NCBI RefSeq assembly: GCF_035084215.1
Contig: NC_090363.1
Location: 12,214,001-12,278,000, forward strand
Length of the DNA: 64,000 bases
DNA from: Heptranchias perlo
Taxonomy: Eukaryota
Direction of reading: 5' to 3'
In this document: in pieces, positions 4,416 to 64,000 of the stretch
Layout of the letters: each line of letters begins with the position of its first letter
Numbering within the stretch: position 1 is the stretch's first letter
The notes under the pieces: generated by a model
The model's database searches: none
What the model saw: only the letters and a program-made list of their open reading frames with translations
Told to the model about the DNA's origin: nothing
Position numbers and translations under genes: made by a program

Positions 4416-4608
4416 TTCAATGGACAATATCTAAGCAGTATATAAATATGAATGGATTTTCCTCAATCATACATGCATCAACTTGAGGCAATTTATGCTT
4501 TAAAGCCTGCTGTCGACTTCTATAACTTTCCCTAATTCTTTATTTGCACATATTACTTTACTTTTAACTATATCCGAATCTGCATCTATTTTTGCTCGCT
4601 TGGCTTAC

Positions 4609-4735
4609 CATCCCGAACTACTGAGGTGTCGACATTCGAAATAAAAGTCAGTCCAGCATCCATGAAAACATTAACGCTGTTAGCACCACCTCCAAAACTG
4701 CACCCAAGATCGTACGAATTCATCTCTTCAAAGAC
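4609..4735 (-). CDS. C4: C4 exon 15 (VFEEMNSYDLGCSFGGGANSVNVFMDAGLTFISNVDTSVVRD)
   Basis: Acceptor tgtctag, donor GTAAGC; 127 nt; DLGC..GGG linker motif. Confidence 0.93.
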
Positions 4736-40992: not shown

Positions 40993-42400
40993 AACAACAG
41001 CAACAACTTGCATTTATATAGCGCCTTTAACATAGTAAAACGTTGTCAGCAGCGGAGACAACTTAAATTTGACACCGAGCCACACAAGGAGATATTAGGT
41101 GACCAAGTTCTTAGTCAAAGAAGTAGGTTTTAAGGAGCATCTTAAAGGAGGAGAGAGCAGTAGAGAGGCTGAGAGGTTTATGCAGGGAAATTCAAAGCTT
41201 GGGGCCGAGACAGGGCCACCAATGGAGGAGCAATGAAAATCGGGGATTCTCAAGAGGCCAGAATTGTAGGAGCACAGATATCTCAGTGGATTATAGGGCT
41301 GGAGGACGTTACAGAGATTGGGAGGGGCGAGGCGATGCAGTGATTTGAAGAGGATGAAAATTTTAAAATGGAGGCGTTCCCGGATCTGGAGCCAATGTAG
41401 ATCACGAACACAGGAGTAATGGGTGGACGGGCGTTGCTGTGATTAAGGATATGGGCAATTAAGTTTGTGTGAGCTCAAGTTTATAGAGGTTGCAAGGTGG
41501 GAGGCCGACCAGGAGAGCATTGGAATAGACGAGTCCAGAGGTAACAAAGGCATGGATGAGGGTTTCAGCAGCAGAGGGGCTGAGGCAGCGGCAGAGGGGG
41601 CGGATGTTGTGGAGGTGGAAGTAGGCGGTCTTCGTGATGGAAATGATATGAGGTCAGAAGCTCAGCTCAGGGTAAAATAGAATGCCAACGTTGTGAACAG
41701 ACTGGTTCAGCCTCAGATAGTGGCCAGGGAGAGGGATGGAGTCATTGGTTAGAGACGGGAGTATGTGGCGGGGACCAAAGATAAAGGCTTCAATCTGCCC
41801 ACTATTTAATTGAAGGAAATTGCTGCCCATCCAATACTGGATGTCAGACAAACAACCTGAAAAATCAGAGACGGTGGACGGGTCGAGAGAGGTGGTGGTG
41901 AGGTAGTGTTGGGTGTCATACACGTGGAATCTGAAATCGTGATTTTGGATAATATCACTGAGGGGCAACATGCAGATGAGAAATAGGAGTGGGCCAAGGT
42001 TAAAACCTGGGGACTCCAGAGGTAATGGTGCCAGAATGGCAAATGAAGCCATTGCAGGTGATTCTCTGGCTACGACTGGATAGATAGGAATGGAAACAGG
42101 CGAGGGCATTTCCACCCAGCTGGACAACGGGGGAGAGGCTTTGGAGGAGGATGGTGTGGACCCCATAATGCTTTATGTGGTCCAACCATAATGGCGATTA
42201 ATGGTAAAAGCAGTTGTCTGCCATAAACGTTCAAGGCTGGGTCCTTTGGAGTTAACGGGGTGGAGATGGGGCTGTACTACGGGGAACCAACTGGGTGAGA
42301 GAGTAATGGTTTTAATGGAGGCAAGGGCATCAAAGGTAGAGGTGAGGGTGTGTTTGAGCAGATCGGTGGCCATTAGATACAGTGGAAATATTTTATATTG
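40993..42400 (-). mobile_element. L2-type LINE with internal deletion, at the start of duplication unit 1
   Basis: (TTG)n tail at 40993; LGPLLFLIC.LPL, LSDIQYWM..NFLQLN motifs; homologous pieces at 52190-52600 and ~61325-62525. Confidence 0.8.
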
Positions 42401-42933
42401 ATCAAAATGACCATTCAGGGCACGACAGTGACCAACGGTCACTCAATCGCCGACCATGGTGAAAAAGTGTTAATCGCCCTCACAATGGACTGAAAGATGC
42501 AGCCGGGTGATGACCTATTTTATATTCCACTCCCAGCTTCGATATTGGATGTCATGAAGTCAAAACGATTTACTCCATCACTCTTTCACTCTCACAGCTT
42601 TTTGATATCATTTACACTTTGTTAAGTGCTAACGGACGGGTTCACATTTTAATCCCCTTCTTCTCCATTTACCTTTTAGTTTTTATGACTGGAACCTTCG
42701 CAAAATTAATTAAAGCACCGTGTTATCAACGCGATCAAAGTGATGCAATGAGGTAACAGGTTCAGAGCGCGGCATTAATTAGCCTGAGAATGCCCATTGG
42801 AGCCTCGATTTTCTCAGTGCCTCATTAAGTGATCGTTTGGAAAATAAATATGTTCTAATGTGTTTGTTCTAAGAACCGTGGCTAATTCCAGGTCTTATGT
42901 AAAACCACTGCCTCCCTGTGGGACTGACTGGTG

Positions 42934-42940
42934 TATAAAA
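42934..42940 (+). promoter_or_regulatory. TATA box, GPCR copy 1
   Basis: TATAAAA 83 bp upstream of the ATG; same position in all three copies. Confidence 0.6.
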
Positions 42941-43016
42941 CAGCTCCTGTTTTAATGCATTGTCTTTGTGTCCAAACCAGACCCTTGCTTCCACGATTGT
43001 CTGGTTTAGTCAGGAA

Positions 43017-43086
43017 ATGGGAGGATCAGCAATTTTCTACGAATCAGTCATTTGCTATCCAATTCTTGCAATTATTGGTCTTCCCA
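43017..43086 (+). CDS. GPR139-like GPCR copy 1, exon 1 (MGGSAIFYESVICYPILAIIGLP)
   Basis: ATG at 43017, 70 nt, donor GTAAGT; supplies the first half of TM1 (YPILAIIGLP-TN). Confidence 0.85.
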
Positions 43087-43101
43087 GTAAGTAATAAATT
43101 A

Positions 43102-43227
43102 ATGAGGAAAGGTCATCGACCTGACACGTTAACTCTGCTTCTTTCTCCACAGATGCTGCCTCACTGAGTATTTTCGGCATTTTCTGATATTTTTCAGATT
43201 TCCAGGATCCGCAGTATTTTGCTTTTG
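43102..43227 (+). mobile_element. Penelope-like element terminal fragment with a degenerate hammerhead motif (copies at 53369-53492 and 63300-63425)
   Basis: TGANGA-A-AGGTC-ATC-GACCT-GAAAC-GTTA followed by acagatgctgcc...tgagtatttccagcattttctgtttttatttcag; recognised from recall of the fish Penelope-derived repeat. Confidence 0.65.
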
Positions 43228-44192
43228 AAGTAATAACAAGCATTTATTATTTGGACCATTGTTTAAATGCATTGTTGCTTTTTAATACATGCTGTTTGCC
43301 TCTACATCTTTGTTCTTTGGTTGCCCACCTTGTGGTAAGTTTATTGAACAGAAATGTCTCACTTATTTACTTCAAAATGACAACTTTTGTGATATTATAT
43401 AAGGCTCTCTAAACGTATACATCAAATGCAAGTTCTCCCCTTTGTTAAACGACTTGCAATCAGCTACCTGTAATAACTGTGGCCATCAGGTCTAAAATGA
43501 GGTTTCTCATGCGAAGTTTTAAACTGAGTTTCTATTCCAGATGTTAACAGGCCTGGTGCGGATCTTCAAGATTCTGTATTTCTGAATCACGTGCTTTCCT
43601 AAACGTTTGTCACGCTGTGAATTGACTTTGGGGGCAAATTTAACCCAACCCGTCCGTCGGGAAACTGATGGGATCAGGTGCGACGCTGGTTCTATAACCC
43701 ACCTGGTTTTACCCGCCATTGAAGTTAATGGGATGTAAAACCAGCGGTTCACCCGATCCGTGGGTTAAAATTACCCCCTCTGTGTCGGAATTTGAAGGAA
43801 ATCAATGGCTATTTTCCTAAACACCGATCATTACCCTCACATGATGACAAGCCTTCTCATCAGTAATGTGTCTCTCAGAAGATCATCGACAAAATCGTGA
43901 AACTGTCACAGTAAATCACGTGTGTCAAAGGAGGGGCCAATTTCCAGCAATTCGTTATTGGCACGTATTTTATTCTCGAAAGAGGTCAATTAAATCAGCA
44001 GAGTAGTGAGTGAACTTGGCATCGTCCAGATCTGGTTGTCTCAGTAACACACCCAGTGAGACTGGGAGGAATCCGTTTCAGTAACAAGCCTCCTGTCTCA
44101 CAGCTACGAAACATTCAATTCCAAGGGAGTGTGATTTTATATCGCTAATCTATTTCTTCGTTAATTCTCCTGGTTTTTCCAATTTCTTACAG

Positions 44193-45091
44193 CGAACCTG
44201 ATGTCAGTTGTGATCCTGTCACGGGGAAAGTGCGGTCTCTCCAAAGGAATCACTCGTTACATGGCGGCCATGGCAGTAGCAGATCTAATGGTTTGCATGT
44301 TTAATGTAATTTTGCAAAACATCTTTAGGTATCATTTTCTAAATTCATGGTTGAGCTACACTTACGTGTGCCGTTTCAATGCTTTTATACAAGTATTCAG
44401 TATTCAACTCTCTGTCTTATTCACAGTATCATTCACGTTTGACCGCTTCATATCCATTTGTTGCCAGAAACTAAAATTGAAATATTGCAACGAAAGAACT
44501 GCCACTGTAGTTTTAACGATTGTGTGTATACTCAGCTTTTTGATGATTATTCCTGTTTATTTCCGTTATGAGCCCTACTCTATTATTGACGATATACCGT
44601 GGGGCTGCCGTACAGTATCAGGATATTATTCTTCACTGGCACGGGTAGCTTACAAATGGATTAGCAATCTCTCATCCCCAATTCTCCCATTCCCTTTGTT
44701 ATTGCTGTTAAATTCTCTCACTGCCAGGCACATCTTAGTGGCCAGTAGATCTCGCAGAGCCCTGAAGAGCCGAAACAATGGGGAGAACAGCAGTGATCCC
44801 GAGATGAAGAACCGAAGAACATCCATCATTCTGCTCTTCGCTATCTCGGGGAGTTTTTTTGTGTTGTGGACGCCGATTACTGTAATAAACATCTGTATCG
44901 GTGTGACGGAGACACCTACTTTCAAAGGTTCAAACTCACTTTATTTGGCAATTAGAATCGCACTTCTGCTGATGTATTTGAGCTCCTGCACGAACACGTG
45001 CATTTATGCATTGACCCAGAGGAGATTCCGAGAGGAGATGAAGAATATGGTGAAATATCCGGTTACTCTCATTACTAAATTATTTAAATAA
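44193..45091 (+). CDS. GPR139/GPR142-like class A GPCR copy 1, exon 2 (full protein 322 aa)
   Basis: Acceptor ttcttacag. 7TM motifs: GLPTN (TM1), AMAVADL (TM2), C3.25, FTFDRF (TM3), ECL2 GC, ILPF (TM5), LWTP (TM6), NTCIY (TM7), RRFREE (helix 8). Intact ORF. Confidence 0.9.
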
Positions 45092-45559
45092 TTAAATTTT
45101 AATTCCTCGTATTTTCCTGGTATCCAGGTTCGTTGTTGCTACTTGAAGTGTTCGGCTGAGGCCAAATATTGCACCCATTGGTTCTCAACCTTCCACAACA
45201 CCAGTTGGCCATTTTCCTACCTCACAAGGTGATGGTAGTTACGCTGCTGTTCTAAAACTCGCAATACCGATATCAGAAAACAAACCACACCGAATTTTCC
45301 AAACATATTGCTGAAATAATGTTTTAACATAAACTTCACAACGTTTCACAATTGTTCATTTTTTGAGGTGAAAGCACAGCGAGCAATGGTGCCCACCGGT
45401 TCTCAATGATTTGCAGAAGATTCCCTTTGGCTGCTACTATGAAGATATCAGATACACAACGTGAAGATTCCATCTGGTCTGTACGTGTGAGGGCATCAGA
45501 AACTCATCGGGAATGCTTCTTTTGTATCCAGTCTTAAAGGATGTCAGTTTGGTTCCTGT

Positions 45560-46165
45560 GTGTAAGGGGTTGGAAGTTATGCTACAGCTATAGAAAGCCC
45601 TGGTTCGACCTCACCTGATATACTGTGTACAGCTCTGAGCACCGCACCTTAGGAAGGTGATATTGATCTTGGAGGGGGTGCAGCATAGGTTTACTAGAAT
45701 GATAACTGGAATCCAAGGGTTAAATTAGGTGAGATTACACAAACTATGGTTGTATTCCCTAGATTTTAGAAGATTAAGGTGCGAGATGATCAAAGTTTTC
45801 AAGATATTAAGGGGAACTGAAGGGGTAAATATAGAGAAACAATTTCCGCTGGTCGGGGAGTCTCGGACCAATGGGATACCGCCTAAAAATCGAGCCAGAA
45901 CCTTCAGGAGTGAAGTCAGGAAACACTTCTACTGGGGTGGTAGAAGTTTGGAACTCTGTTCGGCAATCGGCGGTTGATGCTAGCTCGATTGTTCATTTGA
46001 AATCAGAGATTGATCTATTTTTGTTATTCATAGGTATTAAAGGATTTGGGGCAAAGCCGGGTATATGAAGTTAATTCACAGATCAGCCATGAACTCATTG
46101 AACGGCAGAACCGCCTCCAGTGGCTAAATGGCCTACTCCTGTTCCTATGATGTTATGTTCCTATG
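45560..46165 (+). mobile_element. CR1 3' fragment (duplicated at ~55260-55870)
   Basis: LYSLDFRRLR, WNS; ttcctatg tail; present in both units. Confidence 0.85.
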
Positions 46166-48759
46166 ATATCAGAAACACAACAATATATGTATTTCTGCAA
46201 AAAGGGACAGAAATTTTGTTTCTTTGTGATAAGCTCCACAACTGTCTCCTGACTGGAGATTAATAGACACGGGAAGTCACATCACTGGGTGTGCGAGATT
46301 ATATAACAATTGGACCATATTGTAAAATAACGGGACTTATTTATTTCATTTATTCTTTGAATGTGGGCATCCCTGGATAGGCCGGACTTTATTGTCCATC
46401 GCTAATTGTCCTGTGAACCTTTTGTTTTATTCGTTCATGGGTTGTGAGCGTCGCTAGCAAGGCCAGCATTCATTGCCCATCTCGAATTGCCCTTGAGAAG
46501 GTGGTGGTGAGCCGCCTTCTTGAACCGCCGCAGTCCGTGTGGTGAAGGTTCTCCCACAGTGCTGGTGATGGCAGGCCTTCTGCCTTGAATCACTGTCAGT
46601 TGTTTGAAACAAATGTGTGGATTGTGTGGCCACTTTACAGCGTAGCGAACCATTACACTACCGTAGCCATGACTTCATTATAACGCAGTGTCCAGCTGGC
46701 CCAATCCGTGAATCTGAGCCTTGCTTGTAAATGATCCGTTCCAATCATGATTTGATTTTTGGCGTTAGGAGCTCAACAATTCGCTTCAATGCTCAAGGAC
46801 TGGGGATGTGTAAAAGTTGGGCGTGGTCCGCTCTCCTGGTCAAATTTAAATGACCCCTCTGCGAAAGTGTGCCTGTCTGGATTCAAGGAAGAGCTCAGCT
46901 TGAATTAACCCAAGGTTATATCTCATGTCGAGAATCACAGTGCATCCTCACAGGCAATGGAAGATCATACCCTCTGTACCATGTGTCAGAATTAGCGGAA
47001 AGCTTCCGTCGATGTTTTCCTGCGAAATCCCTTACATTTTGCAGAAATACATATCATATTGTATTGCAGATGATATCCGTGCACACGGAGACCAAGGTAT
47101 TCCAGATCAGTTCTTGATGTCCTCAGACGCACAGTTCAGTTGCAATTTCAGTGTTCTGTCGCTGATATTTTTACTCATATGGACCAAATGCAATCTTTCT
47201 GTTCTGCAGATGATATGGTCAATCAGAGGGAGCAAATGAATCTTCCAGTTTTGTTTCAGATATCTTCACTATTGGGAACAAAGTTCATTTTCCCATTGTG
47301 TAGAAGATACATTTACTCAAAGCGATGAAAGGGAATCTTCCCATTGTGTATCTGACATCTTGACTGGTAGGGAAAAAAGGAATCTTCTATCCTTTGTCAA
47401 GCACTGATGGGAATCTTTCCCAACTGCGTTTTCATCTCAAAAATGAACAATTGTGAAAAATATTAAGGATTAAGTTACGCATGTGATCATCTAACGTTCA
47501 CCAGATTGAAACATCTGGATGAAAGTGTCCAATATGTCACTTGTACCTCAATGTTTTCTCCCAGTCTACATATATTGTAAATCTATCTTCAGAATTGATC
47601 GCAAGTGGGGCAATTCAAAAATCGAATTCATTGTCCGCATGCCTGATTGATTACTTTTTCTGTGCAGATCTGAATCAAATTGAAATGAATTTGTGATTTT
47701 AAAATATTTTAGAAAGCCAAATCTACAGAAATACTTTTCCATGCAATTTGATTTGATATAACTGTCCTGCTTAACGAGTCGGAGGCCATTTTATCAGGGC
47801 ATGAGTAATCTTCGAAGGGGCTGATGTGCAAATGACATCATTCATGGTTCCATGATTGGACGGTAATAAATTTCGGCAAGAAACATTGGCGGATTAAAAG
47901 AGGAAAGTTGATTATATCGGCCTGCTATCAACAAAATGGTGGATATAATTGCATGATGAATGATAAAAGTAATTATTTTGGGAAAGGAACGGAATGATGC
48001 AGCAAACAGACTGTGGGGAGGTCCTCAATTGAAAAAAAAAGACTCAGGCGAAGGGCCATGAGCAACCGCGCAAATAGAGGGACATACGGGAAGTTTGACA
48101 GCAATAAGCCAATCGTTCATTCAAAATCTTAGTATATTAGCTTGTTTAGTTGTTCAAATGTTAAACCCTGTCAATGGCTTTGAATATCAGGAAAGTAAAT
48201 TCCCAAATACTCACCAGTAGGAATCTGATGGTTTATGAAGGGGCTAAAAAGGGCATCAGTAGAACTGCCTCACCGAACTCCATACTGGTGATCAGAGATT
48301 AGAAGAGAACTTTCAGGTCGATGGATTAATTAAGTTTTAAAATTTGCCACCTAAATTTTGGAAAACACAGGGTTAAGTGCAATAGGCCCTTAGTTAGAAA
48401 GTCAGAGCAATCGACGTTCTTTGGGATCGAACTTTGACAAACAGCACTATAAGTAAAAAGGATATGAGGAATGAATGCAACCGACAGTGTGTAAACAGAA
48501 CAACGCGTGCCTGAGATTAGACACATGCATCTCGAGAACCATAGGAAGAATTCTACCAGAGTTGGAGGTTTTTGGAGTCAATGAAAGGCATAATCCAACA
48601 TACAGTTTATTATAATGTTGAAACATTACATAAAGTGACCGTGAGAATGCCTTGAAGACATTTTAGTGAAGTCTCACTATATGATTGGTATATTAATATA
48701 CTCCAATTTGGCTTTCGCAATATTAACCCACATTCAAACATGTGTATGGGGTAGGAAAT

Positions 48760-50690
48760 CAACATAGGAACAAGAATAAACAATTCAGTCCCTCGACCCT
48801 TTCCGCTGTTCAATGAGATCATGGCTGATCTGTATCCTAACTCCATCCACCCGCCTTGGTTCCTGATCCTTTAATAACCTTGGCTAGCAAAACTGTTATC
48901 GATCTCAGATTTAAAATTATGAATTGAAGTAGCATCTGTTGCTTTTAGTGGGAGAGAGTTCCACATTGCTACCACTCTATGTGTGAAGAAATGTTTCCTA
49001 ATTTCTCTCCTGAATGGCCTGGTTATGATTTTAAGGTTATGTCCCCTTGTCCGAAACTCCCCAACCAGCGGATTTTTTTTCCCTCCATCAACCCTAGCAA
49101 ATCCTTTCAAAATCCTAAAAACGTCAATTAAATCACCCGTTAACCTTCTATATTCGAGGGGCTACAAACCTGGTTTGTGTATTCTCACCATATAATCTCA
49201 CCCTTGGAGCCCTGGTAACATTTCTTCACTCAACGGGGTGGTGAACCTATGGAATTCTCTACCACAGAATGCTATGGAGGCCAAGTCACTGAATATATTT
49301 AAGAAGGAGCTAGATAGATTTCCAGACACAAAAGGCATCAAGGGGTATGGGAAGAGAGCGGGAATATGGTATTGAGATAGAGGATCAGCCATAATCATAT
49401 TGAATGACGCAGCAGTCTCGAAGGGCCGAATGGCATAATCCTGCTCCTATTTTCTATGTTTCTATGTTACATTCTGGTGAATTTGCACTGCACTCCTTCC
49501 AAGGCCAATATATCCTTTCTGAGGCGCAATGCCCAGAACTGTACACAGTACTCCAGATGTAGTTTAACCAGGGCTTTGTATCGCTGTTGCAATCCTTCCT
49601 CCTTTTTATATTCTGGCCCTCTAGTTATTAAGGCGAACATTCCATTAGTTTTTTTGATTATTTTTTGTACCTGATTACTACATTTTAGTGATCTGTGTAG
49701 ATGGACCATTAAATCTCTTTGGACCTCCACTGTTCCTAACTTTTCACCATTGAAAATTGCTCGGATCAATCCTTTTTTGGTCCTCGCACTTTTGGATGAC
49801 CTCACACTTGCCTGAATTGAAATTTCAATAACTTCTCCACATCAAATGTTAGACTCACAGATTTATAATTTCCTGGTACTCACTCTCGTCTTTCTTAAAT
49901 AATGGAGTTACATTTGCCGTATTCCAATCTAAAGACGCAATTCCAGAATCGAGAGAGCTTTGGAAGATTATGGCTAAAGCATCTGCAATTTCCTCACCTC
50001 CTTCCTTTAAAATCCTGGGATGGAAACCATCAGGTCCTGGGGATTTGTCAGTCTATACTGCCCTTATTAATCCTAATTTTGTTGTCTTGCTTACATTAAC
50101 GTCAGTGAGTTTCAGTCCTTGATTCATTATTAGCTTCCCTGGAGTGTTCGGTATATTATCCTTTTCCTCTACTGTGAAGATTGACACAAAATAATTATTC
50201 AACAAGTCTGCCACTTCCTTATTTTCATTTGCAATATTACCAGCGTCTGTTTTGATTACCGTTTTTCTTCTAATATAATCGTAAACACCTTTTGTGTTGA
50301 TCTTGGTATCCCTCGCAAGGCTCTTTTCGTATTCCGTTTTTTGCAGGCATTTTTATCTGTTTTGGCTTCCTTTGCTGTTCTTTATATCACCCCCAGTCCC
50401 CTGGATCTACACTATTCTTTGTACTCTTTTATGCCCTTTCGTTTAGTTTTATGTTGTCTCTCATCTTTTTATTCTGCCATGACTGTTTTATTTGGTACGT
50501 CGAGCTCTTGTCCCTTCTGGTTATATACTGGTCCTGTATCAAATTAAATTCTTCTTTGAACACCGCCCACTGTTCGTCTGCAGTTTGACTCGACAACAGT
50601 TTTGATAAGATTGATTTCGTCAGTCTCTGTCTCACCGCTTTAAAGTTAGCCATATCAAAATCTGGAATCTTAGAAATTGTGTTACGTTTC
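48760..50690 (-). mobile_element. Degraded CR1 with a nested plus-strand CR1 3' end (~49223-49468); duplicated at ~58585-60470
   Basis: RT motifs with deletions; in unit 2 the nested insertion is flanked by a GTAACATT duplication (59039, 59290). Confidence 0.85.
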
Positions 50691-50759
50691 TCCTCAGGGA
50701 GTGAATCATTCCTTTTTAAACACTGTGTATTGTACATGTACAGGACTGACACTGAGACA

Positions 50760-51025
50760 CTGTTTCTATTTCTCTCTCTCCATCTTTATCCCTCTATATC
50801 TCTCTACCTCACTCTCCGTCCTCTCTGTTTCTCTGTCTCTATTTCTCGCTGTCTGAATCTCTTTTGTTCATTTCTCTCCCCCACTCGCTGCCCTTTCTCT
50901 TTCCCTCTCTCCTTCTTTCACTCTTCTGCTCACTCTCTATTTGTATTTCTCTCTCTATCCCTTTTCCCCTGCCCCTATCACTGTTCCTCTCCCTTTCTTG
51001 CTGTCTCCCTTTCATTGTTGTCTCT
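50760..51025 (+). repeat. CT-rich low-complexity tract
   Basis: Direct inspection. Confidence 0.85.
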
Positions 51026-51607
51026 GAAATGTTCTTCATTGAGATGTACTCTGAAATATTTCAGTCTCACTGGTAAATAACAACAAATCACAATTCTATA
51101 GCTTTTCTATACATTAAAGATTCAATTAGGCGTTGCAAATCTGTCAGGAAGTTCTGGTTTCTCAACTTAAAACATTTTAGTGTTTAAAATTTTACAGGGA
51201 CCTGAGATCAAAAGCTGTTTCCCATTCAGACATTCCAGCATTTGGAAGTCCCTGTTATCTTTACAGAGACAAGAGATGGAATTGTTCAATAGAGATTGAA
51301 GATTTGATCAATTGAGTAGTGTCAGAATTAGATTGAATCGCTCACATCTACACTGGATTCAAGCTGTTTCCAGTAAACACCCTGAGGCAATGAAATGGGT
51401 AAACCATGTCTGAGAAATTTCAAAGTGACGAAACACACTGGAACAGGAAATGGGAGAATATACAAAACCGGAGGCCCAGAACAGAGCAGAAGGAAGGTGT
51501 TAGCATCAATTGCAGTTTTTGCATCTGTTGTGTATTTGGACCAGATGCTGTTTAACTTTAGTTCTTTAATGTAGTCGCTGGACAGTGAGGGCTGTGCCTG
51601 GGGAGCC

Positions 51608-51808
51608 TGGGGTGCTTGGGCACAAGGAGAGTAGGAGATAGGCGGTGAGGGGACCCTGGGGTCATTGGGCAACAGTGGGAAGGGGAGACAGGCTGCGAGG
51701 GTACCCTGCGGTGCTTGTGCAATGGAGGAGGGGAAGACAGGTGTTGAAGGAACCCTGGAGTGCTTGGGCACAGAGGGAAGGGGAAACAGGCTGCGAGGGA
51801 ACCCTGGA
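51608..51808 (+). repeat. Degenerate ~50-bp G-rich tandem repeat x4
   Basis: Units like GGTGCTTGGGCACAGAGGGAAGGGGAGACAGGCTGCGAGGGAACCCTGG. Confidence 0.75.
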
Positions 51809-51967
51809 TTATATTATGCGACCAGTGACACTGAGAAACACATACGTTGAACAGTTAGTGACAAATGTCCCGTGTATGTGCTGATCCATTTGTGACACAT
51901 TTTTAATGTCGAATCAAATATTCCTGCGTACGACAGAGACTGTCCGTCAATAATTCCCTTTTACTCA

Positions 51968-52182
51968 CAGTGTACTTGTGCGTATACAGAAGCTGAAACT
52001 GAGACATACGTGTGCCATACAGTACCAGACGGGAGTGAATCGGTCCCTTAAACACGCTGTGTACTGTACATGTACAGGAGCAGAAACTGAGACATACACG
52101 GCCATACAGTACCAGAGGAGAGTGAATTGTTCCCGTGTGCCCGCTGTGCGCTGTACATGTAGAGCAGCTGACATTGAGACAA
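51968..52182 (+). repeat. ~87-bp satellite-like repeat at duplication junctions (also 50697-50760 and 60476-60765)
   Basis: Units GTGTACTGTACATGTACAGGAGCTGACACTGAGACATACACGGCCATACAGTACCAGACGGGAGTGAATC... Confidence 0.8.
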
Positions 52183-53200
52183 GCATGGTCTCTCAGTAAT
52201 CTTAGTGATAACGAAGTCCATCAGCTCGTCGCACTTGTTGTTGGAGATGACTGTAGAGGGGCAGTGGTTAGAGGTTTAAGAAGACCGTTTGCAGTGGAGA
52301 AAAGAAGACGGGGTTTATGTTTTCATTCCAGGATGATCCTGCAATAGTGAGCAATTTCGACAGAGGAGAACAGGACCCGATAAAGCTGTATGTGGTCAAG
52401 CCAGATCTGGCAATGAATTGATAAACCAGTTGTCGGCCATAAATTTTAAAGTCTGGGGCCCTTGGACTTAAGCAAGCGGAGGTGGGAGCTGTGCCAAGGG
52501 CAAGGACCAGTGTGAGATGGAGTAATGGTTTTAATGGAGCAAGGGCAACAAAGTTGGAGGTGCGGGTGTGATTGAGCAGATCAGTAGCCATTAGGTACAG
52601 TGCAGATATTTTATATTGATCAGAATAACTCTTCAGGATAGGACAGTGACCAACAGTCACTCAATCGCCGACCATGTTATGCTGGTGAAATTGTGTCAAT
52701 CGCACTGGCACCTGATTGAACGGTGCTGCCGGGTGATGACCCATTTTATATTCCACTTCCAGCTTCGAAATTGTATGTCATGAAATCAATGCGATTTACT
52801 CCATCACTCTTTCACTCCCACAGCTTTTTGATATCATTTACACTTTGACTGTTATGTGCCAACGGACGGGTTCACATTTTATTCCCCTTCTTCTCAATTT
52901 CATTTTTAGATTTTACAACTGGAACAACGGAGCCTTCTCAGAATTAATTAAAGCATCGTGTTACTAACAGCAGAATCACAAAAGAAGCTGCTTTGAGGTA
53001 ACAGTTTCAGAGCGGGGGATGACTGAGCCTGAGAGTGCCCAGTTGAACCTCGATTTTCTAACTGCCTCATTAAGTGATCGTGGAGCGCACTTTACTCATT
53101 GATTTGGAAAATAAATATGTTCTAATGTGTTTGTTCGAAGACCCGTGGCTAATACCATCTCTTATGTAAAACCACGGTGTCCCTGTGGGACTGACTGGTG

Positions 53201-53207
53201 TATAAAA
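53201..53207 (+). promoter_or_regulatory. TATA box, GPCR copy 2
   Basis: TATAAAA in the same context as copy 1. Confidence 0.6.
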
Positions 53208-53283
53208 CAGCTCCTGTTTCAATACGTTGTCTTAGTGTTCAAACCAGACTCTTGCTTCCACGGTGGTCTGAATTAGGCAGGAA

Positions 53284-53353
53284 ATGGGACGAGCAGCAAT
53301 TTTCTACGAATCAGTCATCTGCTATCCAATTCTTGCAATTATTGGTCTTCCCA
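53284..53353 (+). CDS. GPR139-like GPCR copy 2, exon 1 (MGRAAIFYESVICYPILAIIGLP)
   Basis: ATG at 53284, 70 nt, donor GTAAGT. Confidence 0.85.
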
Positions 53354-53908
53354 GTAAGTAATAAATTAATGATGAAAGGTCATCGACCTGAAACGTTAAC
53401 TTTGCTTGTTTGCCACAGATGCTGCCTCACTGAGTATTTCCAGCATTTTCTGTTTTTATTTCAGAGTTCCAGCATCCGCAGTATTCTGCTCTTGCATGAA
53501 TAACAAGCATGTATTAAGTGAAACATAAATGCATTGTTGCTTTCACGTTTTGCTGTTTGCCTCCATCTCTTTGTTCCTTGGTTGCCCATTTTATGATAAG
53601 CTGATTGAATAGAAATCTCTCACTTATCCTTATTTTCTTCAAAACGATAACTATTGTGATATTATAGAGTGCTCTCGAAACGTATACATCAAATGCAAGT
53701 TCTCCCCTTTGATAAGCGCCTTGCAATTAGCTACCTGGAATACCTGTGGCCATCAGGTTTATCGTGAGGATCATTATGCGGAGTTTTAACCAGATTTCTC
53801 TGGCCTCCTTTCTCATAAATGATAAACAGCCAATGCTAAAGGAGTGTGATTTTATATCGCTGATCTATTTCTTTGTGATTCTCCTGCTTTCTTTCCAATT
53901 TCTTTCAG

Positions 53909-54804
53909 CGAACCTGATGTCAGTTGTGATCCTGTCCCGGGGAAAGTGCAGTCTCTCCAAAGGAATCACTCGTTACATGGCGGCCATGGCAGTAGCAGAT
54001 CTAATGGTTTGCATGTTTAATGTCATTTTGCAAAATATCTTCAGGTATCATTTTCTAGATTCATGGTTGAGCTACACTTACGTGTGCCGTTTTACTGCTT
54101 TTATACAAGTATTTAGCAGCCAACTCTCTGTCTGGTTCACAGTATCATTCACGTTTGACCGCTTCATATCCATTTGTTGTCAGAAACTAAAATTAAAATA
54201 TTGCACAGAAAGAACTGCCACTATAGTTTTAATGATCGTGTGTGCGCTCAGCTTTTTGATGAATATTCCTGTTTATCTCCGTTATGAGCCCTACTCTATT
54301 ATTGACGATATACAGTGGGGGTGCCGTACAGTAACAGGATATTATTCTTCATCCGCATGGGTAGCTTACAAATGGATTAGCACTCTCTCATCCCTAATTC
54401 TCCCATTCCCTTTGTTATTGCTGTTAAATTCTCTCACGGCCAGGCACATCTTAGTGGCCAGTAGATCTCGCAGAGCCCTGAAGAGCCGCAACAACGGGGA
54501 TAACAGCAGTGATCCCGAGATGAAGAACCGAAGAACATCCATCATTCTGCTCTTCGCTATCTCGGGCAGTTTTATTGTGTTGTGGACGCCGATTACTATA
54601 ATAAACATCTGTGTCGGTGTGACGGAGACACCTACTTTCAAAGGTTCAAACTCACTTTATTTGGCAATTGGAGTCACACTTCTGCTGATGTATTTGAGCT
54701 CCTGCACGAACACATACATTTATGCATTGACCCAGAGGAGATTCCGTGAGGAGATGAAGAATATGGTGAAATATCCATTTACTGTCGTTAAGTTATTTAA
54801 ATAA
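53909..54804 (+). CDS. GPR139/GPR142-like GPCR copy 2, exon 2 (full protein 321 aa)
   Basis: Acceptor tctttcag; same 7TM motifs (NTYIY in TM7); ~90% identical to copy 1 by manual alignment. Confidence 0.9.
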
Positions 54805-56927
54805 TTATATTTTAATTCCTCGCATTTTCCTGGCATCTAGGTTGTTTTTTGCGACTTGAAGTTTTTGGCTGAGGCCAGTTATTGCACCCATTGGTTCTCA
54901 TCCTTTCACAACATCAGTTGACCATTTTCCCACCTCACAAGGTGATGGCAGTTACGCTGCTGTTCTAAAACTCGCCATACCAATGTCAGCAAACGAATCA
55001 CACCGAATCCTCCAAACATATTGCTGATAGGATAAACTTCACAATGTTTCACAATCGTCTATTTTTTGAACAATTGAGCGAGCGAAGTTCCCAATCGGTT
55101 CCCGACGATTTGCGGAAGATTCGCTTTGGCTCCCATTGGTGAAGATATCAATTACATAACATAAAGATTCCATCTGGTCTGTACGTGCGAGGGCGTCAGA
55201 TACTCATCAGGGATACTTCTTCTGCGTCCAGTCTGTAAGGATGTCACTGTCGTCCCTGTGTGTAAGGGTTTGAAATTGATGCAACAGCTATACAAAGCAC
55301 TGACTAAACCGCACCTGGAATACTGTGTACAGCTCTGAGCACCGCACCATCGGAAGGAAATATTGATCTTGGAGGGAGTGCTGCCTAGGTTTACGAGAAT
55401 GATACCTGGACGCCAAGGGTTAAATTAGGTGAGATTACACAATCTAGGTTTGTCTTCCCTGGAATTTACAAGATTAAGGTGTGAGTTGATCGAAGTTTTC
55501 AAGATATTAAGGGGAACTGATAGGACAAATAGAGAAAAACTATTTCCGCTGGCCGGTGAGTCTCGGACAAGGGGATACAGCCTAAAAATAGAGCCAGAAC
55601 CTACAGGAGTGAAGTTATGAAACACTTCTACACCCAAAGGGAGGTGGAATTTGGAACTTTCTTCGGCAATCGGCAGTGGATGCTAGCTCTATTGTTAATT
55701 TTAAATCTGAGATTGACCTATTTTTATTAATCAAAGGGAGTAAAGGATTTGGTGCTGAGGCGGGTATAGGAAGTTAGTGCACAGATCAGCCATGAATTCA
55801 TTGAATGGAAGAACAGCCTCGAGGGGCTAAATGTCCCACTCCTGTTCCTATGATCCTATGTTCCTATGATATCAGAAACACAACAATATATGTATTTCTT
55901 CAAAGAGTAAGGGACAGAAATTTTGTTTCTTTGTGATAAGCTTCACACTGCTGTCCTGACCGGAGATTGATAGGCAAGGGAAGTCACATCACTGGGTGTG
56001 CAAGACTATCTCACAATTGGACCATATTGGAAAATAGCAGAACCTTTTTGTTTCATTTATTCTTCGAATGTGGGCATCCCTGGCTAGGCCGTCCTTTATT
56101 GCCCATCCATAGTTGCCCTGAGAACGTGATGACGGGCTTTCTTCCTTGAATCACCGTAAGTTTTTTGAAACAAATATGTGGCTTGCGTGGCCACATTTGA
56201 GTGTAGGAAAGAGTCAACCAAGCACCTCTGCGCCAGAATGGATGGCTGATTTCCTTCCCGAAAGGACATCATTGAAACGATTGGGTTTTTTAAAGTATCG
56301 GACTGCTTTATGATCACTTTTATTGGCTTTTATTTCCATAGAAACAGAATAAAAATTCTCATAAAGTGATGGTGCAATTCACAGCATCTGGATTACTAGC
56401 CCAGCAATATAACCATTGCATTACCATACCCATAACTTCATGATAATGCAGTGTGCAGTTGGCTCAATCCGCGAATCTGAGCCTTGTTTCTAAACAATCC
56501 GTTCCAATTAAAAGCTCATGTTTTGATGTTTTTGGCGTTAGGAGCTCAACAATTCACTTCAATGCTCAAGGATTGTGGACGTGTAAAAGTTGGGCGGGGT
56601 CCGCTCTCCTGCTCAAATTTAAATGACCCCTCTGTGAAAGTGTGCCTGTCTGGAAGCTGGGAACAGCTGAGCTTTGATTAATCCTAGAGTACATCACATG
56701 TCAAGAATCACAGTGCATCCTCTCAGATACTGGAAGATCATACCCTCTGGACCATGTGGCAGGCTTAGCCGAAAACGTCCGTCAATGTTTACCTGTGAAA
56801 GCCCTTACATTTTGCAGAAATACATATGATAATGCATTGCTTATGGTATTCGTGCACACTGAAACCAAAGGTATTCCTCATCATCTCCTGATGTCCTCCG
56901 GCGTACAGACCAATTGCAACTTCTCTG

Positions 56928-57220
56928 TTCTGCAGCTGATATTTTCACTCATATGGACCAAAGGCAATCTTTCCGTTCTGCAGATGATCTCGTCACTCAT
57001 CGGGACCAGATGGAATCTTCCAGTTATGCATCTGATATCGTCACTCATAGGAACCAAAGGCAATTTTCTCAATGTGTCGATTATATATTTACTCATAGCA
57101 ATGAAAGGGAATCTTCCCGTTGTGTAAATAATATCTTCACTCATAGGGACCTGGTGGAATCCTGCCATTGTGTATCTGACATCTTGACTCGTAGGGGAAA
57201 AAAAGGAATCTTCCCCCCTT
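56928..57220. repeat. Degenerate 48-bp tandem repeat (~6 units; ~5 units at 47153-47390)
   Basis: Units like TTCTGCAGATGATATCTTCACTCATAGGGACCAAAGGGAATCTTCCCG. Confidence 0.8.
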
Positions 57221-60200
57221 TGTCAAGCACTGATGGGAATCTTCTCCATCTACGTTTTTATCTCAAATATGAAATGTTTTAAGCTTTAAGTTACACATGT
57301 GATCATCTAACGTTCACCAGATTGATACATCTGGATGAAAGTGTTCAATATGTAACTTGTACTTCATTGCTTTTTCCCCGTCTACGTATGTTGTGAGTCT
57401 ATCTTAAGAATTGATCGCAACTCAGGAAATGCAAAAATGTAATTCATTGCCCGCATGACTGATTGATTACTTTTTCGCTCTGCTGAGCACATCTGAATCA
57501 AAATTGCAATGAATTTATGTGATTTTAAAATATTTTTACTGAGCCAATTCACCAGAAATACTTTTCCATGCAATTTGATTTGATATAACTGTCCTGCTTA
57601 ACGAGTCGATGGCCAATTTATCAGGGCATGAGCTATCTTCGAAAGGCCTGATGTGTAAATGACATCATTCATGATGCAATGATTGGACGGTGATAAACTC
57701 AGACAAGAATCATTGGCGGATTAAAAGAGGAAAGTTGATTATATCGGCCTGCTATCAACAAAGTGGTGGATATGATTGCATGATGAATGATAAAAGTAAT
57801 TATTTTGGGAAAGGAACGGAGTGATGCAGAGTACAGATTGTGGGGAGTTCCTCAGTCCTAAAAGACTCAGGCGATGGGCCATGAGCAACTGCGCAAGTAG
57901 AGGGACATAAGGGGAAGTTTGACAGCAATAAGCCAATCGTTCGTTCCAAATCTTATGATATTAGCTTGTTTAATTGTTCTATTATCATCCCTATCAATGG
58001 CTTTGAATATTTGTAAATTAAATTACCAAAACACTCACCAGTCGGAATCTGATGGTGTATAAAGGAGCCAATGAGGTCATCAGTAGAACTGCCTCACCGA
58101 ACTCCATACTGGTGATCAGAGATTGGAAGAGAACTTTCATGTCGATGGATTAATTAAGATTTAAAAATTACCTCCTTAATTTTGGAAAGCACAAGGTTAA
58201 GTGCAATAGGCCTTTAGTTAGAAAGTCTGAGCAATCGACGTTCTTTGGGATAGAATGTTGGCAAACAGCTCTATAAGTAAAAAGGATATGAGGAATGAAT
58301 GCAACCGACAGTGTGTAAACAGATCAACACGTGGCTGAGATCAGACACATGCATCTCGAAAACCATAGGAAGAATTCTACCAGAGTTAGAGTTTCTTGGA
58401 GTTAATGAAAGGCATGATCCAACATACAGTTTATTATAATGTTGAAACATTACATAATGTGGCCGTGAGAATGCCTTGAAGACATTTTAGTGAGGTTTCA
58501 CTATATGATTGGTATATTAATATATTCCAATTTGGCTTTCACAAGCTTAATCCACATTCAAACATGTGCCTGGGGCAGGAAATGAACACAGGAACAAGAG
58601 TAAACCATTTAGTCCCTCGACCCTTTCCGCTGTTCAATGAGATCATGGCTGATCTGTATCCTAACTCCATCCACCCGCCTTGGTTCCTGATCCTTAAACA
58701 ACCTTGGCTGGCAAAACTTTAATCGATGTAAGATTTATAATTATTAATTGAAGTAGCATCTGTTGCTTTTTGTGGGAGAGAGTTCCACATTGCTACCACT
58801 CTATGTGTGAAGAAATGTTTCCTAATTTCTCACCTCAAAAGCCTGGTTATGATGTTAAGGTTATGTCCCCTTGTCCGAGACTCCCCAACCAGCGGAATTT
58901 TTTCCCCTCCACCGACCCTATCATATCCTTTCCAAATCCAAAAAAAGTCAATCAAATCACCCGTTAACCTTTTATATTCGTGGGACTACAAGACTGGTTC
59001 GTGTATTCTCAGCATATAATCTAACACTTGGAGCCCTGGTAACATTTCTTCACTCAGAGGGTGGTGAACCTATGGAATTCTCTGCCACAGAAGGCTGTGG
59101 AGGCCAAGTCACTGAACATATTTAAGAAGGAGCCAGATAGATTTCTAGACACAAAAGACATCAAGGGGTATGGGGAGAGAGTGGGAATATGGTGTTGAGA
59201 TTAAGGATCAGCCATGATCATATTGAATGGCGGAGCAGGCTCAAAAGGGCGGAATGGCCTACTCCTGCTCCTATTTTCTAAGTTTCCATGTAACATTCTG
59301 GTGAATTTGCGCTGCACTCCTTCCAAGGCCAATATATCCTTTCTGAACTGCAGTGCCCAGAACTGTACACAGTACTCTTGATGTAGTCTAACCAGGGCTT
59401 TGGAAAGCTGGAGCAAACCTTCCTCCCCTTTATATTCTAGCCCTCCACTTATAAAGGCTAACATTCCATTAGTCTTTGTGATTATTTTTTTTTACCTGAC
59501 TACAACATTTTAGTGATCTGTGTAGATGGACCATTAAATATCGTTGGACCTGCACTGGTCCTAACTTTTCACCATTTAAAAATACTCGGATCAATCCTTT
59601 TTTGGTCCAAAATGGATGACCTCACACTTGTCTGAAATTAAATTTCAATAACTTCGCCACAACAAAAGTTAGACTAACAGATTTTTAATTTCCTGGTACT
59701 TCTCTCTCGCATCTTTCTTAAATAAAGGTTTTACATTTGCAGTATTCCAATCTAAAGACGCAATTCCAGAATCGAGAGAGTTTTGGAAGAGTATGGCTAA
59801 AGCATCTGCAATTTCCTCACCGACTTCCTTTAAAATCCAGGCGTGGAAACCATCAGGCCCTGAGGATTTGTCAGTCTATACTGCCCTTATTAATCCTAAT
59901 TTTGTTGTCTTGCTTACATTAACGTCAGTGAGTTTCAGTCCTTGATTCATTATTAATTTCCCTGGAATGTCAGATATATTATCCTTTTCCTCTACTGTGA
60001 AGATTGACACAAAATAATTATTCAACAAGTCTGCCACTTCCTTATTTTCATTTGAAATATTACCAGCGTCTGTTTTGATTACCGTTTTTCTTCTAATATA
60101 ATCGTACACACCTTTTGTGTTAATCTTGGTATCCCTCGCAAGTTTCTTTTCATATTCCGTTTTTGCAGCTCTTATTATCTCTTTTTGTTTCCTTTGCTGT

Positions 60201-60779
60201 TCTTTATATCACCACCAGTCCCCTGGATCTACACTATTCCTTGCACTTTTTAAATGCTCTTTCGTTTAGTTTTATGTTACCTCTCATCTTTTTATTCTGC
60301 CATGGCTCTTCATTGGTACGTTACATTATTTTTTGAACACCGCCCACTGATCATCGGTAGTTTTACTCGTAAACAGTTTTGATAAGTTTGCTTTCGTCAG
60401 TCTCTGTCTCACCGCTTTAAAGTTAGACATATCACCATCTAGAATCTTAGTAATCGTGTTAGGTTTCTCCTTCGGGAATGAATCATTCCCTTTTAACCAC
60501 TGTGTACTGTACATGTACAGGACTGACAATGAAACACACACGGGCCGTACAGTACCAGATGTGAGCAAATCATTCTCTTTTCCCCTTGTGTACTGTACTT
60601 ATAAAGGAGCTGACATTAGGACGCAAACACAGGCCGTACAATACCAGAAGGGCGTGACTCAGTCCCTTTTTCCCGCTGTGTGCTGTCCATGTGCAGAAGC
60701 TGACACTGAGACATACACGGGCCATACTGTCCCAGACGGGAGTGAACCATTCCCCTTTAATATGTAACGTGTTACATTG

Positions 60780-61320
60780 TGTTACATAGCATTTACAACA
60801 GAGAAACAATCCATTCGGACTTTCTCCGACATGAAGTTATCATGCTTCCCCTTAACTACATTTATAGCTTCCGCCTTAACTTCTCCATGTGGTAGCAAGT
60901 TCCATTCTCTAACAACTCTGTGGGTAAAGACGTTGCCCCTGAATTTTTTATTGGATTTATTAGTGACTATTTTATTTTCATGGCCCCTCGTTTTGGACTC
61001 CTCCACAACTGGTAACATCTTCTCTACTTCTACCCTCTCAAACACCTTCATAATCCTGAAGACCTCTATTAGGTCACCCATCAGCCTTCCCTTTTCTTGA
61101 GAAAAGATGTCCAGCCTGTTTGGTCTTTCTTAAAATTTTGATATCATCCATGTAATGTTTTTTGGAATCTTCTCTAGTGCCTCGATACCCTTTTGTAACA
61201 TGGAGACCGCAGTACTCAAAGTTTGGTCGAACCAACGTTCTATTTTGGTTTAACATAACTTCTCTGCTTTTCAATTCTATTCGTTTCGAAATGAACCCCT
61301 GTGTGTTGTTTGTATTTTTA
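60780..61320 (-). mobile_element. CR1 3' fragment, not seen at the equivalent position in unit 1
   Basis: GDLIEVFRIMK...FTHRVVREWNLLP. Confidence 0.8.
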
Positions 61321-63131
61321 TGGCCTTGTATGGAGCAGGATGGTGCGCTCAAACGTGTCAAAGTCTGAGGTCATGTCGAGAAGGGTGAGGAGGGATGGTT
61401 CACCACGGTCACAGTCACATGGGATGTCATTTGTGACTTTGATAAGTTCCGTTTCAATCCTGTGGCAGGAGCGGAAACCTGATTGGAGGGGTTCAAACAT
61501 GGAATAGGGGGAAAGATGGGCACGGATTTCGGGAGGAGACAACAACGTCAAGGACATTGGAGCGGAAATGCAGGTTGGAGATTGTAGTTTGCAAGGGCAG
61601 ATGGGCGAAGGTGTTCTTTTGAGCAGGGTTGTGATGACGACAGATTTAAAGGAGAGCGAGCCAGTAAAATAGCCATTGATTTGCTTCAAATTCTGACACA
61701 AAAGAGTTCACAGCGTGAGAGAAGTTTTGGAATACACGTCAGTCAGAAATACAAAATCTTGGAGATGCTTAACAAGCCTGTTAACATGTGGAAGAGAAAC
61801 TCAGGTTAAAACTCTGCATGAGGATCCTCACGTTAAACCTGATGGCCACAGTTATTCCAGGCAGCTTAGGACAGGGAAACGTTAATATCATCAGCTAACA
61901 TGGGGCTAGGAAGTGAAGTTGGGTGGACAGCAGTTTGGTGGGAATAGGGTCGAGGTAGCAGGAGGTGGTCAAGACTAGCTCGGAGAGCGCATGAGGAGAG
62001 ACAGGCGAGAAAGTAGAGAAAGGAGGAAGTTCAAGGCTAGCGCAGGGAGGAACCTTGGGGTAAGTTTGGCTTCGTGGGTTAAGGGAAAGCAGGGAAGCGG
62101 CAGAGGCAGCAGAACGGATGGTCTCAATCTTAGTAATAACGAAGTCCATGAGCTCGTCGCACTTGTTGTTGGAGCTGACTGCAGAGGGGCAGTGATTAGA
62201 GGTTCAAGAATACCGTTTGCAGTGGAGAAATGACGCCGGGGTTAATGTTATCATTCCAGGATGGTCCTGGAATATTGAGCAATTTTGGCAGAGGAGAATA
62301 GGACACGATAAAGCTTTATGTGGTCCAGCCAGATCTGGCAATGGATTGTTATACCAGTTGTCCGCCGTAAATGTTCAAGTCTGGGTCCCTTGGACTTCAG
62401 GGAGGGGAGATGTGGGCTGTAACGGGGGTAAGGACCAGGGTGAGAGGCAATAATTGTTTTAATGGAGCAAGGGCATCAAAGTTGGAGGTACGGTGTGATT
62501 GAGCAGATCGGTAGCCATTAGGTACAGTGTAGATATTTTATATTGAAAAAAATATGCATTCAGGGTACGATAATGACTAACAGTCACTCAATCGCCGACC
62601 ATGTTGCGCTGGTGAAATTGTGTTCGTCGCACCAGCACCTGATTGAACGGTGCTGCCGGGTGATGACCCATTTTATATTCCCCTCCCAGCTCCGATATTG
62701 TATCTCATGTTGTCAATGCGATTTACTCTATCACTCTATCACTCTCACAGCTTTTTGGTATGATTTGCACTTTGACGGTTAAGTGCTAACTGACAGGTTC
62801 ACATTTTATTCCCCTTCTTCTCCAATTCACTTTTAATTTTTAGAACTGGAACAACGGAGCCTTCGTAGAATTAATTAAAGCATCGAGTTACCAAGAGCTA
62901 AATAACGTCATCAAGAAACTGCTTTGAGGTCACAGTTTCAGCGCGGGGGATGACTGAGCCTCAGAGTGCCCAGTGGAGCCTCGATTTTCGCACTGCCTCA
63001 TTAAATGATCGTGGAGCGCACTTTACTCATTGATTTGGAAAATAAATATGTTCTAATATGTTTGTTCGAAGGCCCGTGGCTAATACCATCTCTTATGTAA
63101 AACCACTGTGTCCCTGTGGGATTGACTGGTG

Positions 63132-63138
63132 TATAAAA
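63132..63138 (+). promoter_or_regulatory. TATA box, GPCR copy 3
   Basis: TATAAAA in the same context as copies 1 and 2. Confidence 0.6.
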
Positions 63139-63214
63139 CAGCTCCTGTTTCAGTTCATTGTCTTTGTGTTCAAACCACACCCTTGCTTCCACGATTGTCC
63201 GGTTTCGGCAGGAA

Positions 63215-63284
63215 ATGGGACGGGCAGCAGTTTTCTCCGAATCAGTCATTTGCTATCCAATTCTTGCAATTATTGGTCTTCCCA
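63215..63284 (+). CDS. GPR139-like GPCR copy 3, exon 1 (MGRAAVFSESVICYPILAIIGLP); exon 2 expected just beyond the window
   Basis: ATG at 63215, 70 nt, donor GTAAGT; the following intron aligns to the long copy-1 intron up to 64000. Confidence 0.8.
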
Positions 63285-64000
63285 GTAAGTAATAAATTAA
63301 TGACGAAAGGTCATCGACCTGAAACGTTAACTCTGTTCCTTTCTCCAAAGATGCTGCCTCACTGAGTATTTTCAGCATTTTCTGTTTTTATTTCAGAGTT
63401 CCAGAATCCGCAGTATTCTGCGCTTGCAGTAATAACAAGCAATTATTATGTGGACCATTTTTAAAATGCATTGTTGCTTTCACAATGTGCTGTTTGCCTC
63501 CATCTCTTTCTTCCTTGGTTGCCCATTTTATGGTAAGTTTATTGAATAGAAAGCTCTCACTTTGCCTTACTTCTTATAAAAGGAAAACTATTGTGATATT
63601 ATATAAGGCTCTCTAAATGCATACATCAAATGCAAGTTCTCCCGTTTGTTAAACGCCTTGCAATCAGCTACATGGAATAACTGTGACCATCAGGTTTATC
63701 GTGAGGACCCTTATGCGGAGTTTTAACCAGAGTTTATCTTCCAAATGTCAACAGGCCGGTTACGCATCTCCAAGATTCAGTATACCTGACTCACGTGAAT
63801 TCCTAAACTTCTCCCACGCTGTGAATTGACTTTGGGGGCGAATTCAACCTAACCCGACTGTCGGGAAACTGACGGGATCGTGTGCATCGCTGGTTTAATA
63901 CCCCATCCCATTTTATCCACTATTGAACGCAAAGGGTTCTAAAACCGGCGTTTCACGCCATACTTGGGTTAAAATTACCCCTTCTGTCGCATAATTTGAA

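Follow-up and report, generated by a model that had tools for sequence, protein, structure and literature searches.

A tandem array of GPR139-lineage receptor genes beside complement C4 in the shark Heptranchias perlo: a candidate MHC-linked chemosensory repertoire

We analyzed a window of 64,000 nucleotides (nt) from the shark Heptranchias perlo (assembly GCF_035084215.1, contig NC_090363.1, positions 12,214,001 to 12,278,000 of the forward strand; the coordinates below are those of the window), in which a tandem array of genes for GPR139-like G-protein-coupled receptors (GPCRs) lies next to the gene for complement C4. Comparison of the window with itself by BLAST resolves the array into three plus-strand units of about 10 kb, with starts at ~42158, 52373 and 62301, that are 81-88% identical across kilobases: unit 1 (42158..52372; ~10.2 kb, with approximate borders), unit 2 (52373..62300; ~9.9 kb) and unit 3 (62301..64000), which is ended by the window edge. 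Successive start codons lie 10,267 and 9,931 base pairs (bp) apart, and the windowed DNA identity of units 1 and 2 is 80-94% except at 50.7-52.1 kb. Each unit has a TATAAAA box, a consensus match known from sequence alone, 83 nt 5′ of the ATG (42934..42940, 53201..53207 and 63132..63138), followed by a first exon of 70 coding nt (43017..43086, 53284..53353 and 63215..63284) that is identical at 65-67 of the 70 positions between units and ends at a GTAAGT donor. This exon encodes the short N-terminus and most of the first transmembrane helix (TM1; TM for transmembrane hereafter), and is followed by a phase-1 intron that spans 1,106 nt with GT-AG borders in unit 1 (43087..44192) and, shortened internally, half that length in unit 2 (555 nt; 53354..53908). 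Exon 2 of these two units (44193..45091 and 53909..54804) opens at an AG acceptor and runs in an open frame from the end of TM1 through the stop codon to give proteins of 322 and 321 residues, identical at 291 of 321 aligned residues. Exon 1 of unit 3 is likewise open, with its exon 2 past the window end, and tblastn found no further receptor copy or fragment in the 64-kb window. These results agree with a preliminary description of the locus, which had seen at least three ~10-kb units, each with a TATA box and a 70-nt exon 1, two of them with an intact seven-transmembrane exon 2, in an array that leaves the window.

The products of units 1 and 2 match the Pfam domain 7tm_1 at 87 and 91 bits (cut-off 30.5; E~1e-24) and display N1.50, D2.50, DR at 3.49-3.50, P5.50, W6.48-x-P6.50, N7.49-Y7.53, a cysteine at 3.25 (C3.25) and another in the second extracellular loop (ECL2), departing from the class A consensus in having DRF instead of DRY, a threonine at 7.50 and no W4.50. 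Judged by these marks, the window genes are class A (rhodopsin-like) GPCRs. The first exon is backed by homologues: N1.50, which is residue 25 in the window proteins, falls at residue 23-25 in 41 of 45 matches with a TM1 motif, recognized by pattern among the best 120 matches of a search with exon 2. The extracellular N-terminus is probably only about 5-8 residues long, shorter than the ~10 residues described at first; as described, it is free of sequons, which occur only at residues 182 and 222. A short unglycosylated N-terminus had been taken as a hallmark of receptor repertoires. This argument fell: in coelacanth, sturgeon, teleosts and catshark, GPR139-like genes that are single-copy encode N-termini just as short (N1.50 at 26-28), and the trait is thus not diagnostic.

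Units 1 and 2 differ by 0.046 nonsynonymous (dN) and 0.112 synonymous (dS) substitutions per site (ratio 0.41; Fisher p=0.002), and their non-coding divergence is 0.085-0.18; the copies are therefore under purifying selection. The DNA upstream of unit 3 (62118-63739) is closest to that of unit 2 (52185-53801), with the proximal 200 nt 92% identical, as against 84% for unit 1 to either. An alignment of the three upstream regions contains conserved blocks on a background identity of ~85%, which precludes any claim of motifs. A piece of receptor intron lies inverted just 5′ of unit 3 (61707..61866, minus strand; reverse matches to 43462-43621 and 63666-63825 by self-BLAST) and is likely a rearrangement scar; together with the halved intron of unit 2 it marks rearrangement within the array.

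The search with exon 2 returned 1,682 of 2,720 candidates at E<=1e-3, a total that includes non-family matches, and our family counts and sampling rest on the best 120. These are nearly all from sharks and rays: 118 are named and come from 17 shark and ray species, one more is the window's own, and chimaeras are not among the names. Among the matches listed, H. perlo contributes 39 clusters with 120 member sequences, which may include isoforms, on 16 different contigs. Six clusters that are 88-100% identical to unit 1, all on a 21-Mb contig, total 19 sequences, and by these cluster member counts the array may hold up to about 19 copies. A profile built from the two window exons and 111 of the 120 matches recovers 143 representatives at E<=1e-30 in a 50%-identity library, and species-level sub-clusters are seen in the tree, showing that copies multiplied separately in different species. 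Going by these sequence matches, the family, which databases label automatically as 'probable GPR139', is large and is found in this analysis only in sharks and rays, in keeping with the expansion proposed at first. Its annotation is less consistent than this label implies: the nearest paralogues (P0001-P0007), 86-94% identical to one another, are database models of 275-277 residues, of which P0001 is unit 1 begun at an internal methionine, without exon 1 and TM1, and five are named after unrelated receptors. We rejected these names (mu-opioid, melatonin, cephalotocin and C5a receptor) as best-hit noise because of the mutual identity of the paralogues; counts based on names therefore miss members of the family.

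In the PDB, the family profile places GPR139 first (82 bits, E 2.9e-22, versus 61 bits for the next match), which upholds the GPR139-lineage affinity proposed in the preliminary description. The nearest non-family matches point to two additional GPR139-like lineages, both from non-mammalian vertebrates: B (coelacanth, fish, amphibians, reptiles and sharks) and C (teleosts); sharks carry their own lineage B gene apart from the elasmobranch family. In trees made with FastTree (192 sequences) and IQ-TREE (62 sequences), both with few outgroups and composed without true GPR139/142 sequences, the family is one clade apart from B and C (support 0.984 and 98), and family, B, C and three other sequences form one group (support 0.997 and 98.9). 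Lineages B and C, the closest vertebrate relatives in these trees, share with the family a short N-terminus, the C3.25/ECL2 cysteine pair and the same automatic name, but they seem to be single-copy genes (roughly one cluster for each species among the matches listed) and conserve the pocket, with R6.51 retained in 82/82 and 12/12 sequences, respectively. No mammal is among the 120 matches listed for these lineages (P0249, P0258, P0285 and relatives), in which part of the lineage B models go by the name of TMEM183A isoforms. From profile and tree together, we place the family in the GPR139/142 and MIP/FMRFamide-receptor superclade (PMC8557429), whose characterized members bind neuropeptides or aromatic amino acids.

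An aromatic amino-acid site of the GPR139/142 type, as suggested at first, is not supported by the pocket. The residues that form the Trp/Phe site of GPR139 (PMC8807744 and PMC7318219) are mostly lost from the family: R6.51, E3.32 and H5.43 each occur in 2/121 members, F3.33 in 7/121 and N7.39 in 0/121, with only W6.48 frequent (84/121), and unit 1 has Q, V, N, W, I and L at E3.32, F3.33, H5.43, W6.48, R6.51 and N7.39 (7x38). We conclude that the window genes are not GPR139/142 orthologues. The human orphan receptors GPR139 and GPR142 (PDB 7VUG, 9M42) do resemble the family in a similar TM1 motif and the missing P7.50, and the intron of GPR139 presumably interrupts TM1 at the same position as in the family. 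The top PDB rank, the database names and a two-exon GPR139 gene (PMC7318219) also speak for a reading as amplified true orthologues that sense Trp and Phe. Nevertheless, GPR139 and GPR142 are single-copy and highly conserved, an orthologue being expected at about 70% identity or more across vertebrates, unlike the multi-copy shark family. In the bamboo shark, moreover, gpr139 and gpr142 exist as genes of their own, within an orthogroup that has no more than three genes in any species (PMC13689627 supplement). Further, the cysteine pair and T7.50 are present in 121/121 family members, as against no cysteine at 3.25 in the aligned human GPR139; a single copy scores just 38 bits on human GPR139, level with the CCK and motilin receptors; and a five-sequence profile mainly of lineages B and C scores 129 bits on GPR139, above the 82 of the family. 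We therefore rejected orthology with a retained Trp/Phe site, a reading that is largely refuted and has next to no probability left.

The clade that contains the window genes comprises 61 sequences (support 1.0; 99.8 in the reduced tree), and we compared it with the other 60 family members over a 37-position class A pocket set, the numbering being anchored on conserved motifs. By tree-based site rates, pocket positions evolve faster than other TM sites in the window clade (ratio 1.45, p=0.002) and more so in the other members (2.32, p=9e-9), versus a ratio of 0.67 in the single-copy lineage B (60 sequences sampled from 82 named ones, with 25 unnamed rows dropped), and entropy repeats the pattern. 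Sites in the cytoplasmic half are the slowest (0.73 and 0.48), and in the wider family the pocket outpaces even the other extracellular sites (p=0.001). The pattern expected of a repertoire, i.e., many intact paralogues with a variable pocket and a conserved G-protein face, thus appears strong in the wider family and weaker in the window clade.

Linkage to the major histocompatibility complex (MHC) was judged through C4, by matching the longest-contig values of receptor and C4 records, with the proviso that on very large chromosomes a shared contig does not prove a location within the MHC. The 59 database members of the window clade include 36 on the C4-bearing contig, none on another contig of at least 10 Mb, 6 on small scaffolds and 17 that are untestable. 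Of the 60 members outside the clade, 10 share the contig of C4 and 17 lie on large contigs without it, 23 are on small contigs, and 10 are untestable; on large contigs this amounts to 36/36 versus 10/27 (Fisher p=8e-9). As the sequences are not independent, the fairer count is that of species, and in 11/11 testable species, sharks and rays alike, the window clade lies on the C4 contig. More distant subfamilies (P0066, P0083, P0115 and relatives) also share a contig with C4 in H. perlo, Heterodontus and Carcharodon, and the MHC chromosome may therefore be the hub or birthplace of the family.

Tables that accompany the published account of the ancestral MHC (PMC10751288) provide closer views. 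In its supplement, 13 of the 417 rows for sawfish chr34 are named probable GPR139, genes known by name alone that may or may not belong to the window's clade: one is found 14 kb upstream of C4B-H and another 12 kb downstream of it, ten are grouped within 0.3 Mb between MHC-Ib genes, close to B2M and BRD2, and the last is near SYNGAP. The white shark table has four unnamed genes of 891, 894, 957 and 891 bp between PBX2/NOTCH4 and ZBTB22, and the coding sequences of P0017 and P0014 are likewise 891 and 957 bp long. If this length match is right, the white shark subfamily seems to lie in the class III region, ~9 Mb from C4B-H; for this reason, the MHC linkage looks old and the direct adjacency to C4 incidental. 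Synteny in the sawfish and in the 11 species thus sustains the MHC link proposed at first.

A functional MHC linkage is the core of an alternative in which the receptors, on leukocytes or barrier epithelia, would sense microbial or damage-derived peptides as an immune sentinel repertoire, for which the formyl-peptide and MRGPR receptors are the model. The exclusive C4-contig location of the window clade and the sawfish genes that flank C4B-H or lie among MHC-Ib genes argue for it, and a variable pocket fits it equally. Conversely, 17 of the 27 non-clade members on large contigs are on contigs other than that of C4, and the MHC also holds many non-immune genes. The family name is unmatched in the available supplements of two shark immune single-cell papers (PMC10529500 and PMC11372145), a weak point since the first held just 4,750 characters and genes may appear as bare IDs. 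On balance, we regard a sentinel role as unlikely.

We tentatively place ahead of this alternative, at somewhat less than an even chance, the reading of the array as one MHC-linked subfamily, recently amplified in tandem, whose receptors form a repertoire for the chemosensing of external peptides or amino-acid derivatives. Chemosensing comes first because of an analogy with srw-type expansions and the small known olfactory families of sharks. The nearest non-vertebrate-like relatives of the family match Pfam Srw, and Srw-bearing clusters are among its atlas look-alikes; the window proteins themselves have no Pfam Srw match at E<=0.001. The srw chemoreceptors of nematodes derived from peptide receptors, and 29 of 90 Aplysia chemosensory-like genes are of the srw type (PMC3963977); they share with the shark family the broad peptide-type class A branch and lineage-specific expansion, but the shark expansion is an independent, vertebrate one and the likeness is by analogy only. 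The vertebrate OR, TAAR, V1R, FPR and MRGPR repertoires are similarly composed of compact genes in tandem clusters, with birth-and-death evolution, a variable pocket and a conserved cytoplasmic face; they differ in ancestry, and the shark coding region is split in TM1. Domains of known vertebrate chemoreceptors (7tm_4, V1R, TAS2R) are not matched, Pfam giving 7tm_1 only, and OR, TAAR, V1R/ORA, V2R and TAS2R are not among the nearest matches listed in the exon 2 and PDB profile searches. The catshark has only ~8 OR or OR-like genes and 32 canonical V2Rs (PMC11979771), numbers that leave room for another family.

Under the chemosensory reading, the family would have descended from the GPR139/142 and MIP/FMRFamide-receptor lineage as receptors with almost no N-terminus, whose ligand would bind within the bundle of helices, beneath a lid formed by ECL2 and held by the C3.25 disulfide. 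Differences in the pockets of paralogues would then confer different specificities, and the conserved cytoplasmic face would couple all of them to one G protein (Gq/Gi by analogy with GPR139). The likely sites of action would be sensory cells of the olfactory system, taste, gill, skin or gut. The position beside C4 would make the array a passenger of a duplication-prone MHC class Ib/III region, with no promoter in common.

Several points weigh against this reading. The 37 pocket positions are ones we assume rather than ones taken from a model, and within the window clade the pocket does not differ significantly from the other extracellular-half sites (p=0.23 for rates, p=0.065 for entropy). 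Likewise, differences between units 1 and 2 are not significantly concentrated in it (6/37 pocket versus 12/164 other positions, p=0.11). With dN/dS below 1, positive selection is not demonstrated, and the fast pocket sites could stem from relaxed constraint. We found no expression or ligand evidence, the two single-cell supplements included, and the top-50 catshark brain and olfactory list, as available, is without a GPCR, though it is also without V2Rs (PMC11979771). Finally, the MHC location suits an immune role as well. Some of these points would follow from an alternative of copy-number drift or dosage, in which unequal crossing-over in a repeat-rich region multiplied an internal neuroendocrine or reproductive peptide receptor and pocket variation marks relaxed constraint. 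The 86-94% identity of the closest paralogues, the shortened intron with the inverted intron fragment, the lack of a significant pocket excess in the window clade and the neuropeptide or aromatic amino-acid ligands of characterized lineage members (PMC8557429) are all consistent with it. However, neither complete copy is disrupted and both evolve under purifying selection, the subfamily was retained in both sharks and rays, and in the wider family the pocket varies beyond other extracellular sites above a strongly conserved cytoplasmic face; we hold drift to be possible but rather improbable.

The individual genes are already annotated automatically and tandem receptor repertoires are well known; what would be new is a vertebrate repertoire from the GPR139 lineage that is partly embedded in the MHC. 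The literature searched, which covered few subscription papers and whose supplements may mention the family, yielded no description of it, and it is unmentioned in the available main texts of PMC10620051, PMC8455134, PMC11979771, PMC12361510 and PMC12208981 and supplement of PMC3964593. Similarly, the main text of PMC10751288 has no mention of GPR, G protein or olfactory, and this paper on the ancestral MHC thus passes over, in its text, a subfamily that is on the MHC chromosome in 11 sharks and rays. The literature speaks of a relative paucity of GPCRs (PMC8455134) and of few ORs (PMC11979771) in cartilaginous fishes. A large, intact, pocket-diversified family under a 'probable GPR139' label would alter this picture and bear on the question of how a small number of known receptors lets sharks sense many chemicals. 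Its members may be smell-like or immune sensors that have so far escaped notice. A bolder proposal is that of an unrecognized chemoreceptor family of sharks and rays, probably with at least 100 genes in some species and parallel to srw, with an old subfamily that has been in the MHC since before sharks and rays diverged and whose receptors recognize peptide cues of immune identity or infection; we deem it distinctly unlikely. If it were true, olfaction would be tied to the MHC already in the earliest lineage of jawed vertebrates; OR clusters of mammals include MHC-linked ones. Even if expression proves trivial, an undescribed family and an annotation problem would remain, the latter because exon 1 and TM1 are missing from the models of the nearest genes.

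The neighboring C4 gene is on the minus strand, head-to-head with receptor unit 1. Its ATG at 35676 is 7,341 bp from that of unit 1, consistent with the 7.3 kb given at first for the start of the array, but the repeat unit itself begins nearer, at 6,482 bp. A query with C4 exons returned 30 matches among 62 candidates, 27 of them named C4-like; residues 1-645 of the best (P0121, complement C4-B-like of H. perlo) map onto 15 minus-strand exons, the first coding exons of the gene (4607..35676). With the GCAEQ thioester and catalytic histidine of P0121, we assign the window C4, by sequence, to the c4b-H type as defined in PMC10751288. The gap between C4 and the array contains a decayed reverse-transcriptase fragment of a long interspersed nuclear element (LINE) on the plus strand (38103..39870). 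The head-to-head arrangement, and the two sawfish genes that flank C4B-H, could suggest receptors co-regulated with C4 that sense C4a or another anaphylatoxin. The LINE debris in the 7.3-kb gap, the orientation in the sawfish, in which C4 and the gene upstream of it share a strand (PMC10751288), the apparent ~9-Mb distance of the white shark copies, which rests on the length match, and the absence of C3a/C5a receptors from the 60 PDB matches listed for the profile make such coupling very improbable. A promoter common to C4 and the receptor was rejected, as the LINE debris and the different sawfish orientation give it no support.

Scans for Rfam families and tRNAs gave 0 matches in the window. 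Reverse-transcriptase-like fragments make up ~15 kb of it in total, and an open LINE reverse-transcriptase frame of 811 codons (515-2947, minus strand; Pfam RVT_1) within a C4 intron suggests a young insertion. Other C4 intron sequence includes a long purine-rich GA/GGA low-complexity tract (18063-18804) and a 29-bp minisatellite of 22 copies with 91% matches (24296-24937), which accounts for the long spurious minus-strand open frames there.

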